A stretch of 64,000 nucleotides of DNA. It comes from Escherichia coli (GTDB lineage Bacteria; Pseudomonadota; Gammaproteobacteria; Enterobacterales; Enterobacteriaceae). Positions 17,682-22,870 of the stretch are shown here, one piece after another. The DNA lies in the NCBI RefSeq assembly GCF_003334385.1, contig NZ_QOWN01000024.1, one strand, 5' to 3'. The position numbers were made by a program, and so were the translations under genes. Below the pieces are notes generated by a model. That model made no database searches. It saw nothing but the letters and a program-made list of their open reading frames with translations, and had not been told where the DNA came from. Every line of letters starts with the position of its first letter. Within the stretch, counting starts at the first letter, position 1.

Positions 17682-19505
17682 GTGATCGAAAAATTGCGTA
17701 ATATCGCCATCATCGCGCACGTAGACCATGGTAAAACTACCCTGGTAGACAAGCTGCTCCAACAATCCGGTACGTTCGACTCTCGTGCCGAAACCCAAGA
17801 GCGCGTGATGGACTCCAACGATTTGGAGAAAGAGCGTGGGATTACCATCCTCGCGAAAAACACCGCTATCAAATGGAATGATTACCGTATCAACATCGTT
17901 GATACCCCGGGGCACGCCGACTTCGGTGGTGAAGTTGAACGTGTAATGTCCATGGTAGACTCAGTGCTGCTGGTGGTTGACGCATTTGACGGCCCGATGC
18001 CGCAAACGCGCTTCGTAACCAAAAAAGCGTTTGCTTACGGCCTGAAGCCGATTGTTGTTATCAACAAAGTTGACCGCCCTGGCGCGCGTCCTGATTGGGT
18101 TGTGGATCAGGTATTCGATCTGTTCGTTAACCTCGACGCGACCGACGAGCAGCTGGACTTCCCGATCGTTTACGCTTCTGCGCTGAACGGTATCGCGGGT
18201 CTGGACCACGAAGATATGGCGGAAGACATGACCCCGCTGTACCAGGCGATTGTTGACCACGTTCCTGCGCCGGACGTTGACCTTGACGGTCCGTTCCAGA
18301 TGCAGATTTCTCAGCTCGATTACAACAGCTATGTTGGCGTTATCGGCATTGGCCGCATCAAGCGCGGTAAAGTGAAGCCGAACCAGCAGGTCACTATCAT
18401 CGATAGCGAAGGCAAAACCCGCAACGCGAAAGTCGGTAAAGTGCTGGGCCACCTCGGTCTGGAACGTATCGAAACCGACCTGGCGGAAGCTGGCGATATC
18501 GTGGCGATCACGGGCCTGGGCGAACTGAACATTTCTGACACCGTTTGCGACACGCAAAACGTTGAAGCGCTGCCGGCACTCTCCGTTGATGAGCCGACCG
18601 TTTCTATGTTCTTCTGCGTTAACACCTCGCCGTTCTGCGGTAAAGAAGGTAAGTTCGTAACGTCTCGTCAGATCCTGGATCGTCTGAACAAAGAACTGGT
18701 ACACAACGTTGCGCTGCGCGTAGAAGAAACCGAAGACGCCGATGCGTTCCGCGTTTCTGGTCGTGGCGAACTGCACCTGTCTGTTCTGATCGAAAACATG
18801 CGTCGTGAAGGTTTCGAACTGGCGGTATCCCGTCCGAAAGTAATCTTCCGTGAAATCGACGGTCGTAAACAAGAGCCGTATGAAAACGTGACGCTGGACG
18901 TTGAAGAACAGCATCAGGGTTCTGTGATGCAGGCGCTGGGCGAACGTAAAGGCGACCTGAAAAACATGAATCCAGACGGTAAAGGCCGCGTACGTCTCGA
19001 CTACGTGATCCCAAGCCGTGGTCTGATTGGCTTCCGTTCTGAGTTCATGACCATGACTTCCGGTACTGGTCTGCTGTACTCCACCTTCAGCCACTACGAC
19101 GACGTACGTCCGGGTGAAGTGGGCCAGCGTCAGAACGGCGTACTGATCTCTAACGGTCAGGGTAAAGCGGTCGCGTTCGCGCTGTTCGGTCTGCAGGATC
19201 GCGGTAAGCTGTTCCTCGGTCACGGTGCAGAAGTTTACGAAGGTCAGATTATCGGTATTCATAGCCGCTCTAACGACCTGACGGTAAACTGCCTGACCGG
19301 TAAGAAACTGACCAACATGCGTGCTTCCGGTACTGACGAAGCCGTTGTTCTGGTTCCGCCTATCCGCATGACTCTGGAACAAGCTCTGGAGTTCATCGAT
19401 GATGACGAACTGGTAGAAGTGACTCCAACCTCTATCCGTATTCGTAAACGTCACCTGACGGAAAACGATCGTCGTCGCGCTAACCGCGCACCGAAAGACG
19501 ATTAA
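17682..19505 (+). CDS. typA: ribosome-dependent translational GTPase TypA/BipA
   Basis: 607 aa, GTG start; G-domain motifs [21 protein letters not shown]. Confidence 0.95.
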
Positions 19506-19526
19506 TTTCGTTTTTTAGTTATAAAA

Positions 19527-19555
19527 AACCTGCCATCGCTGGCAGGTTTTTTTTT
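19527..19555 (+). terminator. rho-independent terminator after typA
   Basis: Hairpin cctgccatcgctggcagg followed by a T-run. Confidence 0.8.
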
Positions 19556-19721
19556 ACCTGTCGTGAGCGCACACCAATGCGAGTATCTCCCTTATAAGTC
19601 TGTGATTACGTCAATAGAGAGCTTTGTCACAATTATCTGCAAAGTCATACACCGTTAATTGCTTTCTTTTTTGGCGTAAGCGTAAGATGCTTCATCTGGT
19701 TTAAACCAAAAGGATTAAACA

Positions 19722-20432
19722 ATGGCGGAGAATCAATCCACCGTAGAAAATGCAAAAGAGAAACTGGATCGGTGGTTGAAAGATGGCATCACCACGCCGG
19801 GTGGAAAACTCCCTTCAGAAAGAGAGCTGGGAGAACTGCTGGGCATTAAACGTATGACGCTGCGCCAGGCGTTGTTGAACCTCGAGGCAGAATCCAAAAT
19901 CTTCCGTAAGGATCGTAAGGGGTGGTTCGTGACCCAGCCGCGATTTAATTACAGTCCGGAGCTGTCAGCGAGCTTTCAGCGGGCCGCAATTGAGCAAGGA
20001 CGAGAGCCTTCCTGGGGGTTTACCGAGAAAAACCGTACCAGCGATATTCCCGAGACGCTCGCGCCACTGATTGCAGTGACACCATCAACTGAACTCTATC
20101 GCATCACCGGCTGGGGGGCGCTGGAAGGACATAAAGTTTTCTATCACGAAACATATATTAATCCTGAAGTTGCTCCGGGTTTTATTGAACAACTTGAAAA
20201 CCACTCATTTTCTGCAGTCTGGGAAAAGTGCTACCAAAAAGAGACGGTAGTAAAAAAATTGATTTTCAAACCCGTCAGAATGCCGGGCGATATCAGCAAG
20301 TATCTTGGCGGTTCTGCGGGTATGCCAGCGATCTTAATTGAAAAGCATCGCGCCGACCAGCAAGGCAATATTGTCCAGATAGATATTGAATATTGGCGAT
20401 TTGAGGCCGTAGACCTCATCATTAATCTGTAG
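19722..20432 (+). CDS. yihL: GntR-family transcriptional regulator YihL (HTH plus UTRA-like effector domain)
   Basis: 236 aa; N-terminal HTH region (LPSERELGELLGIKRMTLRQAL). Confidence 0.8.
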   Translation: MAENQSTVENAKEKLDRWLKDGITTPGGKLPSERELGELLGIKRMTLRQALLNLEAESKIFRKDRKGWFVTQPRFNYSPELSASFQRAAIEQGREPSWGFTEKNRTSDIPETLAPLIAVTPSTELYRITGWGALEGHKVFYHETYINPEVAPGFIEQLENHSFSAVWEKCYQKETVVKKLIFKPVRMPGDISKYLGGSAGMPAILIEKHRADQQGNIVQIDIEYWRFEAVDLIINL

Positions 20433-20439
20433 GTGTTTT

Positions 20440-21420
20440 ATGATGACAATAAATAACGCAAGAAAGATTCTACAACGTGTCGACACTCTTCCTCTTTATT
20501 TACATGCTTATGCCTTTCATTTAAATATGCGGCTGGAAAGAGTGTTGCCTGCTGATTTACTTGATATCGCAAGTGAAAATAATCTACGTGGCGTCAAAAT
20601 CCATGTTCTGGATGGCGAGCGTTTTTCTCTTGGTAATATGGACGATAAAGAACTCTCTGCCTTTGGAGATAAAGCCCGCCGTCTGAACCTTGATATTCAT
20701 ATTGAAACCAGCGCCTCAGATAAGGCATCTATTGACGAAGCCGTCGCCATCGCGTTGAAAACTGGGGCATCGTCCGTACGTTTTTATCCACGTTATGAAG
20801 GTAATTTGCGCGACGTATTATCGATTATCGCTAACGACATTGCCTATGTACGGGAAACGTATCAGGACTGCGGCCTGACTTTTACGATTGAGCAGCATGA
20901 AGATTTAAAAAGTCATGAGCTGGTGTCGCTGGTCAAAGAAAGTGAGATGGAGTCTCTTTCCTTACTGTTTGATTTTGCGAACATGATCAATGCAAATGAG
21001 CATCCCATCGACGCCTTAAAAACGATGGCACCGCATATTACCCAGGTCCATATTAAAGATGCCTTGATCGTTAAAGAACAGGGTGGCCTGGGTCATAAAG
21101 CCTGTATTTCAGGTCAGGGTGATATGCCGTTCAAAGCGTTATTAACGCACCTTATCTGCCTTGGTGATGATGAGCCGCAGGTGACGGCATATGGCCTGGA
21201 AGAAGAGGTTGATTACTATGCGCCGGCGTTCCGCTTTGAAGACGAAGATGATAATCCGTGGATCCCTTATCGCCAGATGAGTGAAACACCCCTACCAGAA
21301 AATCATTTACTGGATGCGCGGTTACGTAAAGAAAAAGAAGATGCAATTAATCAGATAAATCATGTGCGTAACGTACTACAACAAATCAAACAAGAGGCAA
21401 ACCATCTTCTGAACCACTAA
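20440..21420 (+). CDS. yihM: sugar phosphate isomerase/epimerase-like TIM-barrel protein YihM
   Basis: 326 aa ORF immediately downstream of yihL. Confidence 0.75.
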   Translation: MMTINNARKILQRVDTLPLYLHAYAFHLNMRLERVLPADLLDIASENNLRGVKIHVLDGERFSLGNMDDKELSAFGDKARRLNLDIHIETSASDKASIDEAVAIALKTGASSVRFYPRYEGNLRDVLSIIANDIAYVRETYQDCGLTFTIEQHEDLKSHELVSLVKESEMESLSLLFDFANMINANEHPIDALKTMAPHITQVHIKDALIVKEQGGLGHKACISGQGDMPFKALLTHLICLGDDEPQVTAYGLEEEVDYYAPAFRFEDEDDNPWIPYRQMSETPLPENHLLDARLRKEKEDAINQINHVRNVLQQIKQEANHLLNH

Positions 21421-21521
21421 TAAGTTTTAACTCATACGCAGTTAATAAAACCATTCTATATGAATGGTCGGTATCTTATTGCCTTTAAAACAGTGATTTT
21501 AAAAATCGCTTAGGGGATGTT

Positions 21522-22787
21522 ATGCTCACGAAAAAGAAATGGGCGTTATTTAGTCTATTAACACTGTGTGGCGGTACAATTTATAAATTACCGTCGCTGA
21601 AAGATGCGTTTTATATCCCGATGCAGGAATATTTCCATTTGACCAATGGTCAAATTGGTAATGCCATGTCGGTAAACTCATTTGTTACCACAGTGGGCTT
21701 TTTTCTGTCTATTTATTTTGCCGATAAACTACCGCGCAGATACACCATGTCATTCTCACTCATTGCGACAGGATTACTGGGTGTTTATTTGACGACAATG
21801 CCGGGGTATTGGGGCATCCTCTTTGTCTGGGCGCTATTTGGCGTTACTTGCGACATGATGAACTGGCCGGTCTTGCTCAAGTCGGTAAGTCGATTGGGCA
21901 ATAGCGAACAACAAGGTCGGTTGTTTGGCTTCTTCGAAACAGGGCGTGGCATTGTCGATACCGTGGTGGCATTTTCTGCGTTGGCAGTATTTACCTGGTT
22001 TGGCAGTGGCTTATTAGGTTTTAAAGCAGGCATCTGGTTCTATTCCCTTATTGTGATTGCCGTAGGCATTATTATTTTCTTTGTCCTGAATGACAAAGAA
22101 GAGGCACCGTCCGTTGAGGTGAAAAAAGAAGATGGGGCATCGCAACACACCAGTATGACCTCGGTGCTGAAAGACAAAACTATCTGGCTTATCGCTTTCA
22201 ACGTCTTCTTCGTTTACGCGGTTTACTGTGGCCTGACATTCTTCATTCCATTCCTGAAAAACATCTATCTATTGCCCGTTGCGCTGGTGGGGGCTTACGG
22301 CATCATTAACCAATACTGTCTGAAAATGATTGGTGGACCGATTGGTGGCATGATTTCAGATAAGATCCTGAAATCGCCGAGTAAATATCTATGCTACACC
22401 TTTATCATCAGTACCGCTGCGCTCGTACTGTTGATTATGCTGCCGCACGAAAGTATGCCGGTCTATTTAGGGATGGCATGTACGCTGGGCTTTGGCGCGA
22501 TAGTCTTTACACAGCGAGCCGTATTTTTTGCACCTATCGGCGAAGCAAAAATTGCTGAAAATAAAACAGGCGCGGCGATGGCGTTGGGTAGCTTTATTGG
22601 TTACGCCCCGGCGATGTTCTGCTTCAGTCTGTATGGCTACATTCTGGATTTAAATCCGGGGATTATTGGCTACAAAATCGTGTTTGGCATTATGGCCTGC
22701 TTCGCATTCTGTGGTGCGGTGGTTTCCGTAATGCTGGTTAAGCGTATTAGCCAACGTAAGAAAGAGATGCTGGCGGCTGAAGCTTAA
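21522..22787 (+). CDS. yihN: MFS-type transporter YihN
   Basis: 421 aa, 12 predicted hydrophobic helices. Confidence 0.8.
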   Translation: MLTKKKWALFSLLTLCGGTIYKLPSLKDAFYIPMQEYFHLTNGQIGNAMSVNSFVTTVGFFLSIYFADKLPRRYTMSFSLIATGLLGVYLTTMPGYWGILFVWALFGVTCDMMNWPVLLKSVSRLGNSEQQGRLFGFFETGRGIVDTVVAFSALAVFTWFGSGLLGFKAGIWFYSLIVIAVGIIIFFVLNDKEEAPSVEVKKEDGASQHTSMTSVLKDKTIWLIAFNVFFVYAVYCGLTFFIPFLKNIYLLPVALVGAYGIINQYCLKMIGGPIGGMISDKILKSPSKYLCYTFIISTAALVLLIMLPHESMPVYLGMACTLGFGAIVFTQRAVFFAPIGEAKIAENKTGAAMALGSFIGYAPAMFCFSLYGYILDLNPGIIGYKIVFGIMACFAFCGAVVSVMLVKRISQRKKEMLAAEA

Positions 22788-22793
22788 TTAATG

Positions 22794-22870
<77 letters not shown>

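Follow-up and report, generated by a model that had tools for sequence, protein, structure and literature searches.

The genes yihL, yihM and yihN (yihLMN) of Escherichia coli, at positions 19722-22787 of a 64-kb stretch of contig NZ_QOWN01000024.1 (the window), resemble parts of several described systems. PhnR, which governs the Salmonella 2-aminoethylphosphonate regulon (phnR-phnSTUV-phnWX), is like YihL in being an effector-released GntR/HutC repressor of a small uptake-plus-catabolism unit. NagR (YvoA) and DasR, which have the same build of winged helix-turn-helix (wHTH) and UTRA domains, respond to GlcNAc-6-P/GlcN-6-P and control large regulons. The E. coli frl operon combines a HutC regulator, FrlR, with FrlC, a xylose-isomerase-fold epimerase that acts on an amino-sugar conjugate, and it also needs a kinase, a deglycase and an APC-family transporter. 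Finally, AsbF and QuiC share the xylose-isomerase-like TIM barrel of YihM, and GlpT, UhpT and PgtP share the MFS fold of YihN. We propose that yihLMN is a CRP-activated, YihL-repressed module for the one-step catabolism of an amino-bearing organic anion, which is probably phosphorylated. We give this combined explanation slightly less than an even chance; the regulatory architecture is near-certain, and the class of substrate, taken alone, has a chance of roughly one in three. The genes and their control elements are as follows.

19722..20432, plus strand: yihL, GntR/HutC-subfamily repressor with a wHTH and a UTRA effector domain
20440..21420, plus strand: yihM, xylose-isomerase-like TIM-barrel protein, a putative metalloenzyme of a rare subfamily; a conserved Arg-rich segment follows strand 8, and the C-terminal helix is long
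21522..22787, plus strand: yihN, MFS importer, non-canonical, remote kin of the anion-transporting OPA/ACS families
19697..19708, no strand assigned: YihL operator, TGGTTTAAACCA, a perfect palindrome of 12 bp lying 13 nt before the yihL start codon (ATG)
19616..19631, plus strand: CRP-type site AGAGAGCTTTGTCACA (TGnGA-N6-TCACA), centred about -71.5 from the inferred start
19659..19664, plus strand: putative -35 hexamer TTGCTT, in a conserved TTG(c/t)nT block, 18 nt upstream of the -10
19683..19688, plus strand: putative -10 hexamer TAAGAT, whose TAnnnT is near-invariant in 12 genera (T107, A108 and T112 of the alignment)

The sequence-only reading had described a regulator, a TIM-barrel enzyme and an MFS transporter in a small catabolic-type module of unknown substrate. 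Its gene positions are exact to the base, all three assignments and the layout are confirmed, and a module of this kind is supported. The three genes are co-oriented, and the spacers are short, as had been said (7 nt between yihL and yihM and 101 nt between yihM and yihN). On one side lies typA/bipA, and on the other are the convergent ompL-yihOPQ...yihV-csqR sulfoquinovose genes. RefSeq names identical copies of the three products only as a GntR family regulator, a sugar phosphate isomerase/epimerase family protein and an MFS transporter.

The control region of yihL

As expected of a HutC regulator, YihL has a GT-N-TA-N-AC palindromic operator near its own promoter. In the dre-type operators of NagR and DasR, the core (TGGTCTAGACCA-like) is of this type too, as in TGGTTTAAACCA. 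The pattern TGGTNTANACCA has a single match in the window, which is the TGGTTTAAACCA operator (0.02 matches expected). In 1.40 Mb of related loci, all 52 matches lie directly upstream of yihL orthologues. The operator is present in all 42 loci with a yihL orthologue, including both of the cassette types described below, and the pattern has no match in the fetched loci that use another regulator or elsewhere in the 1.40 Mb.

The palindrome can also be compared with a genome-wide binding experiment. In NC_000913.3, yihL starts at 4060447, which places the palindrome at 4060422-4060433. Two MG1655 releases differ in length by 1,977 bp, and subtracting this difference moves the palindrome to 4058445-4058456. 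A study by chromatin immunoprecipitation with exonuclease digestion (ChIP-exo) in glucose M9 medium reported three YihL sites, of which two are weak (signal/noise about 5) and the dominant one (signal/noise 60.5) is at 4058436-4058459, with yihL as the nearest gene (PMC8464067 supplement). Because the converted coordinates fall inside this footprint, there is experimental support for binding of YihL at the palindrome, a coincidence that PMC8464067 itself does not discuss. Unlike NagR and DasR with their large regulons, YihL has essentially one strong site, at its own promoter.

To describe the promoter, we aligned the stretches of 120 nt that precede the operator in 12 genera, whose upstream genes are unrelated. 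The right half (TCACA) and the left GA of the CRP-type site are kept in all 12. A consensus promoter scan had missed the yihL promoter, which has 8 of 12 consensus matches against a threshold of 9 of 12. If transcription starts about 7 nt past the -10 hexamer, as its position suggests, then the operator would span about +2 to +13 and the CRP site would be near -71.5, which is a class I position. This agrees with a report that lists yihLM among newly assigned Crp-activated units (PMC8085971). We propose that, without inducer, YihL sits on TGGTTTAAACCA at about +2 to +13 of this CRP-dependent promoter and shuts off its own operon. An effector bound in the UTRA domain would then allow transcription through yihL-yihM and, by extension, yihN.

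In Marinobacterium and in an Oceanospirillaceae metagenome-assembled genome (MAG), four operator copies lie between divergent yihL-yihM and an operon for a Dpp-type ABC transporter. This arrangement puts the Dpp-type importer in the YihL regulon. The tandem copies (L050 7125-7209, L057 7122-7203 and L058 7107-7191) are 19-27 bp apart, start to start.

The yihM-yihN spacer holds two potential hairpins.

21450..21468, plus strand: hairpin 1 (ACCATTC-N5-GAATGGT), -12.6 kcal/mol, z = -5.1
21492..21510, plus strand: hairpin 2, weak (-5.5 kcal/mol, z = -1.8), immediately 5' of the yihN Shine-Dalgarno sequence

A single three-gene transcript is favored by the conserved L-M-N order, by the spacer, in which our terminator and promoter scan found no terminator-like site, and by the lack of a second operator: there is no YihL operator ahead of yihN in any locus that we examined. 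Because no operator precedes yihN, its response to the substrate by way of YihL would need read-through. On the other side are the stable and conserved hairpin at 21450-21468 and the listing of the Crp-activated unit as "yihLM" (PMC8085971). On balance, we infer that yihN is cotranscribed with yihLM. In 11 close relatives, the stem of hairpin 1 is invariant and its loop is variable, and hairpins of other sequence occupy this position in Buttiauxella, Serratia, and Hafnia. Hairpin 1 could be a leaky terminator, an RNA stabilizer, or a protein site; CCATTC-N5-GAATGG could equally be a protein-binding inverted repeat. Hairpins of differing sequence also occur at the position of hairpin 2 (in Yokenella, Pluralibacter, Morganella, Hafnia, and Uruburuella). 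The two together may serve in attenuation, processing, or control of translation.

The YihL, YihM and YihN proteins

YihL orthologues carry PF00392 and PF07702, as HutC-subfamily regulators do, and YihL has full-length matches to HutC-type models and to the structures of NagR (YvoA) and DasR, its best solved relatives (E about 5e-13 and 1e-10). The SUPERFAMILY assignment agrees with this placement (PMC8464067 supplement). The best curated match of YihL is PhnR (TIGR03337), at 183.4 bits, which is below the cut-off of 296.75, and the next family is at 51 bits. PhnR is also the top model for the YihL of type 2 cassettes and for the YihL-like proteins of Marinobacterium and Rhodobacterales (143-149 bits), so that the scores for YihL and its orthologues span 143-183 bits. 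A second likeness to the PhnR regulon is that, in alpha-proteobacterial loci without YihL, the yihM homologue follows the genes of a PhnS/PhnT2-like ABC importer. However, there is no PhnW transaminase or PhnX phosphonatase; yihLMN has a xylose-isomerase-fold enzyme and an MFS importer instead. Neither phnSTUV nor phnWX adjoins the cassette in the window or in any enteric locus, as would be expected of PhnR itself. E. coli handles phosphonates by C-P lyase.

The subfamily of YihM is rare: of 1.84 billion cluster representatives, just 46 match at E < 1e-30. A profile search of a set of 5.8 billion sequences gave at least 13 matches to the family. In the AlphaFold2 model of YihM, which is confident (pLDDT 96.5), strand 8 of a (beta/alpha)8 barrel leads into a loop of 35 residues, and the chain closes with a long helix; both the profile and the fold are those of the xylose isomerase-like TIM barrels (PF01261). 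Across 32 diverse YihM sequences, E151, D178, H204, S91, R114, E154, E160, N181, R265, and E298 are invariant, and H22, Y24, K206, R278, S281, and T283 are near-invariant. Of the candidate positions for the Glu-Asp-His-Glu divalent-metal site that this fold has at the ends of strands 5-8, three (E151, D178, and H204) never vary; the fourth, E250, is mostly Glu, with Gln in four divergent members. Several arginines lie at or near the catalytic face, which suggests that the substrate is an anion. We also considered an endonuclease IV-type phosphodiesterase and rejected it, as the extra His/Asp ligands of the trinuclear zinc site are not among the invariant residues. (For example, Asn181 presumably sits where His182 of endonuclease IV does.)

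The best solved relatives of the YihM family profile are the Art22 isomerase (PDB 8z1i; 1.7e-18) and the 3-dehydroshikimate dehydratase AsbF (1.1e-14). Art22 is 20% identical and has E-N-Y, without the His of the E-x-H motif. In contrast, E151-Q-H153, D178, and H204-I-K206 of YihM align with E-T-H, D, and H-F-K of AsbF, in which these His and Lys residues are catalytic. YihM could be an AsbF/QuiC-type dehydratase of 3-dehydroshikimate or of a related cyclic keto-acid, and the module would be for quinate- or shikimate-like carboxylates. The common E-x-H and H-x-K motifs, the likeness of YihN to anion (carboxylate) transporters, and a shikimate-dehydrogenase-like gene after one distant homologue are in keeping with this. 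Nevertheless, we consider it very unlikely. YihM and AsbF are only about 15% identical, and YihM has an extra conserved C-terminal segment of 70 residues with the invariant R265 and E298. Apart from that one shikimate-dehydrogenase-like neighbor, protocatechuate, aromatic, and siderophore genes are absent from about 90 loci, and the context of YihM is unrelated to those pathways. Also, we know of no native dehydroshikimate dehydratase activity in E. coli, and a dehydratase of this type would leave RidA, the MocR-type regulators, the likeness to PhnR, and the coupled phosphatase (see below) unexplained.

YihN has the 12-helix layout and motif A (D-(R/K)-x-x-(R/K)) of the MFS and matches the MFS_1 profile (PF07690 in its orthologues). 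Its best curated match is the OPA model TIGR00881, over the full length (70.6 bits, E 1.2e-19), far below the cut-off of 407.75, and it has a weak match to the ACS anion-transporter model (37.6 bits). YihN shares the NVFxVY motif in TM7 with GlpT, UhpT, and PgtP, but it is just 18% identical to GlpT, and in four YihN-family sequences the two phosphate-binding arginines of GlpT, R45 and R269, are replaced by Ser and Tyr. Lys22 and Lys27/Asp28 of YihN are conserved. Hence YihN is not a canonical phosphate antiporter. (Transporter classifications may group YihN with the glycerophosphodiester permease GlpU of mycoplasma; we gave this no weight.)

Gene neighborhoods and the substrate

We scanned one genome per species, found 231 relatives, and kept 80 loci for analysis of their context. 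YihM and a transporter are the invariant core; the regulators and accessory genes vary. RidA, a deaminase of enamines and imines, is encoded inside the operon in six loci from two lineages, and these proteins pass the cut-off for archetypal Rid. Proteus has a RidA-YihN-YihM operon and, divergent from it, a PAS_6/HTH_22 regulator, and in Photobacterium the order is YihL-YihM-RidA-YihN. MocR-type regulators, which are of a PLP- and amine-sensing kind, take the place of YihL in about 24 alpha-proteobacterial loci and in Arthrobacter. About 20 Rhizobiales loci begin with a BetA-like oxidoreductase gene, a divergent MocR-type regulator, and the genes of an ABC importer (a weakly PhnS-like binding protein, permeases, and a PhnT2-like ATPase at 434 bits); they end with YihM and then a HisN-like phosphatase of the IMPase family (255 bits, with a cut-off of 275). 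The start of the phosphatase gene overlaps the stop codon of yihM in at least 19 loci. By RefSeq annotation, a plasmid copy has the same order with an NCS1 permease ahead. In the Rhodobacterales loci, a Na/Pi-PhoU gene and a PotD/F-like ABC system accompany YihM, the phosphatase, and MocR. In four loci, an agmatinase-family gene overlaps the yihM stop codon.

An Albidovulum sp. MAG (L037 7980-9812) has a single open reading frame (ORF) of 610 residues for a YihM homologue and a HisN-like phosphatase, which could be a real fusion or an assembly frameshift. An Arthrobacter plasmid carries MocR-YihM-YihN, with 2-hydroxyacid dehydrogenase and glycerate kinase genes upstream, and its YihN is 48% identical to that of E. 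coli. The C-terminal 230 residues of this YihN ORF look like read-through, so we do not regard them as a fused domain. Finally, the BetA-like neighbor passes the choline dehydrogenase cut-off, but the aldehyde dehydrogenase neighbor is below the cut-off for betaine-aldehyde dehydrogenase, so a simple reading as a choline-ester pathway is not secured.

Together, the amine-type regulators and importers, RidA, the amidinohydrolase, and the phosphatase, which is of a type for amino-alcohol phosphates, point to an anion with an amino or guanidino group, probably a phosphoester. The frl operon indicates that the xylose-isomerase fold does handle aminated compounds. (No kinase, deglycase, or APC-type genes accompany YihM.) We propose that yihLMN is an autonomous and horizontally mobile cassette to import and convert a compound in one step. 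YihN would bring in the compound, and YihM, a putative divalent-metal enzyme of the xylose-isomerase fold, would isomerize or beta-eliminate it to yield a product that general metabolism can use. The substrate would be a small organic anion that carries an amino or guanidino group; a phosphate ester or close analogue is the likeliest, and the reaction would probably proceed via an imine or enamine and/or release a phosphorylated fragment.

The main rival, which the RefSeq name "sugar phosphate isomerase/epimerase" implies, is that yihLMN is a plain carbohydrate module: YihN imports a rare sugar, sugar acid, keto-sugar, or cyclitol (possibly phosphorylated), which YihM isomerizes or epimerizes to a mainstream sugar, with no nitrogen chemistry. 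The structural neighbors of YihM with known activity are all sugar or cyclitol enzymes (the Art22 isomerase, tagatose/allulose 3-epimerases, IolI, IolE, and 3-keto-glycoside enzymes). CRP activation is usual for sugar operons, HutC regulators such as NagR and TreR often sense sugar phosphates, and one metagenomic YihM homologue adjoins inositol-catabolism genes. YihM also has weak matches to the NCBIfam models for L-ribulose-5-phosphate 3-epimerase and myo-inosose-2 dehydratase (IolE), but these score only 17.1 bits, as compared to cut-offs of 200 and 290. Furthermore, a kinase, aldolase, or dehydrogenase of a sugar route is linked to YihM in none of about 90 loci, and the recurrent partners are instead amine-type regulators, amine or phosphonate importers, RidA, the amino-alcohol-phosphate-type phosphatase, and the amidinohydrolase. 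We therefore think that a plain carbohydrate module is possible but unlikely.

A more specific form of our proposal is that the YihM family is an unrecognized lyase (or deaminating isomerase) for amino-acid-type phosphoesters that depends on a metal and not on pyridoxal phosphate. The substrates could be O-phosphoserine-like mono- or diesters, with glycerophosphoserine, serine-ethanolamine phosphate, and lombricine as candidates. Their beta-elimination would produce a phosphorylated alcohol and 2-aminoacrylate, which RidA would convert to pyruvate and ammonia. The HisN-like phosphatase would cleave the phosphorylated alcohol, and the BetA-like oxidoreductase and the aldehyde dehydrogenase would then oxidize the alcohol, while a guanidino group would be removed by the agmatinase-like enzyme. 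YihM by itself would be enough in E. coli, as both products would enter central metabolism. This chemistry accounts for every recurrent neighbor, but it is drawn from gene context, and we regard it as improbable.

Several points weigh against our proposal of an amino-bearing, probably phosphorylated substrate. First, the informative partners (the phosphatase, RidA, MocR, and the ABC importer) sit with homologues that are 45-62% identical to the YihM of E. coli and that may have a different substrate; the E. coli cassette itself has neither a phosphatase nor RidA. Second, YihN lends no support to an organophosphate substrate, given its OPA score (70 bits versus 408) and the residues at the two arginine columns. 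For these two reasons, the class of substrate is tentative. Third, genes for RidA, aldehyde dehydrogenases, and GMC oxidoreductases are common and some of the adjacencies may be coincidental, while distant metagenomic homologues (P0122, P0123, P0126, P0271, and P0273) have short or heterogeneous contexts that are uninformative. Fourth, the xylose-isomerase fold normally needs a carbonyl beside the reacting carbon, so that simple aminoalkyl phosphates cannot be what YihM acts on directly. Fifth, yihN may not share a transcript with yihLM. Finally, we found no published substrate for any of the three genes in the full-text literature (using gene names, b-numbers, and UniProt identifiers), and the current MG1655 RefSeq entry, which still tags each of them as "putative", gives none either, as the sequence-only reading had supposed. 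What the literature does contain is slight: one paper counts YihL as an E. coli transcription factor without a known function (PMC9308461), yihL::kan served only as a linked marker (PMC4759930), and the mentions in PMC8228696, PMC7716201, and a 2025 bioRxiv paper are list entries.

Distribution, loss and meaning of the cassette

YihM orthologues that are 60-85% identical occur throughout the Enterobacterales. The sequence-only reading had called for a comparison of genomic contexts, and across genera the trio recurs among unrelated neighbors. In Serratia, Obesumbacterium/Hafnia, and Morganella, the GntR+UTRA regulator, TIM barrel, and MFS transporter lie amid entirely different genes, and the L-M-N order is also found in Citrobacter, Buttiauxella, Yokenella, Pluralibacter, Pseudocitrobacter, Edwardsiella, Shimwellia, Photobacterium, and the neisseriacean Uruburuella. 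In all, over 40 species in at least 10 genera, from the Enterobacterales, Vibrionaceae, and Neisseriaceae, keep the order, and their flanking genes are unrelated. There are two types of cassette: type 1 is E. coli-like (YihN 74-99% identical), and in type 2, YihL, YihM, and YihN are about 46%, 61%, and 51% identical to the E. coli type. As both types coexist in one genome in Citrobacter sp. R56 (L048 and L082) and in Buttiauxella agrestis (L051 and L067), they may serve two related substrates. The paralogous cassette, which is also present in Photobacterium (L060, L068, and L072), has the same operator or TGGTTTATACCA. In Morganella morganii (L006 1-5014), the cassette is about 2 kb from ethanolamine-utilization microcompartment genes (EutN, BMC, PTA_PTB, EutQ, and EutP). 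This proximity may be a coincidence, yet it is noteworthy for the aminoalkyl-phosphate hypothesis.

Within E. coli, the region is present in 4,423 of 5,426 complete genomes, and about 1,000 (about 18%) lack yihLMN. In strain WB61 (L092 7001-7066), typA is joined cleanly to ompL, yihN is reduced to its last 66 bp, and the sulfoquinovose genes (ompL-yihR) are retained. Several other strains have IS4, IS903B, or IS1 insertions in the cassette (hits H1, H2, H3, and H34).

These losses bear on the sulfoquinovose cluster next door. The adjacency that the sequence-only reading had pointed out is real, but it carries no functional weight: because the cassette is autonomous in other genera and has been lost independently in E. 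coli, being next to the sulfoquinovose genes is incidental. An accessory sulfoquinovose or sulfonate branch tied to yihO-yihW, for an amino-sulfonate or a sulfo-sugar derivative for example, would account for the physical adjacency in Escherichia and several Citrobacter species and for the low G+C in common with ompL and yihO. Also, sulfonates are anions that the invariant arginines could bind, the MocR-type TauR controls taurine genes, and one Mesorhizobium locus has an SsuA-family binding protein nearby. However, sulfoquinovose genes do not accompany the cassette in Serratia, Hafnia/Obesumbacterium, Morganella, Buttiauxella, Edwardsiella, Uruburuella, Photobacterium, and Arthrobacter, and the loss of yihLMN from E. 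coli genomes has left ompL-yihR in place in WB61. The two gene sets are convergent, have repetitive extragenic palindromic (REP) elements between them, and answer to different regulators (YihL and CsqR). Co-inheritance or co-regulation with yihO-yihW (the sulfo-EMP pathway) was not found, as yihLMN has its own regulator and operator, and the partners of YihM elsewhere are related to phosphate (the HisN-like phosphatase and Na/Pi) and not to sulfite. A role in sulfonate use is thus highly improbable.

The losses could also mean that yihLMN is a cryptic or decaying remnant in E. coli, and that the sole importance of YihN is to let cationic dyes and drugs in adventitiously. Besides the missing and interrupted copies, the tight repression in laboratory media that is implied by ChIP-exo occupancy in glucose M9 would fit, as would the sole reported phenotype, which is that a knockout of yihN, described as a transporter of unknown substrate, takes up less of many, mostly cationic, dyes (PMC8131027). 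We give this little credence, as the three ORFs are intact and 98-100% conserved in 4,238 E. coli genomes; the proteins, the operator, and the promoter elements are conserved across bacterial families; and Citrobacter and Buttiauxella keep a second, paralogous cassette beside the first.

The boundaries of the module were read directly.

19523..19555, plus strand: intrinsic terminator of typA/bipA, the upstream boundary, a G+C-rich hairpin followed by a T9 run
22794..22869, no strand assigned: two REP-type palindromic elements between convergent yihN and ompL, the downstream boundary

The 3' end of typA/bipA with its terminator (19490-19558, plus strand) matches the Rfam family STnc370 (RF02064) at 54.9 bits, just above the gathering threshold of 54. 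This match may be a small RNA derived from the 3' untranslated region, and it ends about 140 nt before the YihL operator. The REP elements have a sub-threshold match to naRNA4, and because of them, a wider query had a median of 21 matching places per E. coli genome. The Rfam scan gave no match inside yihLMN. The G+C content of the cassette is 44-49%, as compared to 50.5% for the window (yihM, 0.436; yihN, 0.456; ompL, 0.400; yihO, 0.446; typA, 0.536; window, 0.505). The low G+C fits the idea that all of yihL-yihW is acquired DNA.

yihLMN is an ordinary kind of system, an uptake and conversion cassette that is controlled by a repressor and activated by catabolite control, but no function has yet been assigned to its three genes in E. 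coli K-12, and our analysis makes the problem tractable rather than de-orphaning them. The switch is now defined, as one operator that is tied to an existing ChIP-exo peak and a CRP-dependent promoter, which offers a reporter for inducer screens. The module is set apart from the sulfoquinovose pathway, exists as two paralogous cassettes in enteric bacteria, and has been lost from about a fifth of E. coli strains. Instead of any sugar, the chemical search can now focus on amino-bearing organic anions, and on phosphoesters above all. Should an aminophosphoester from the host or the diet prove to be the substrate, then yihLMN would be a niche determinant that varies among E. coli lineages, and YihM would represent new chemistry for a well-studied fold.

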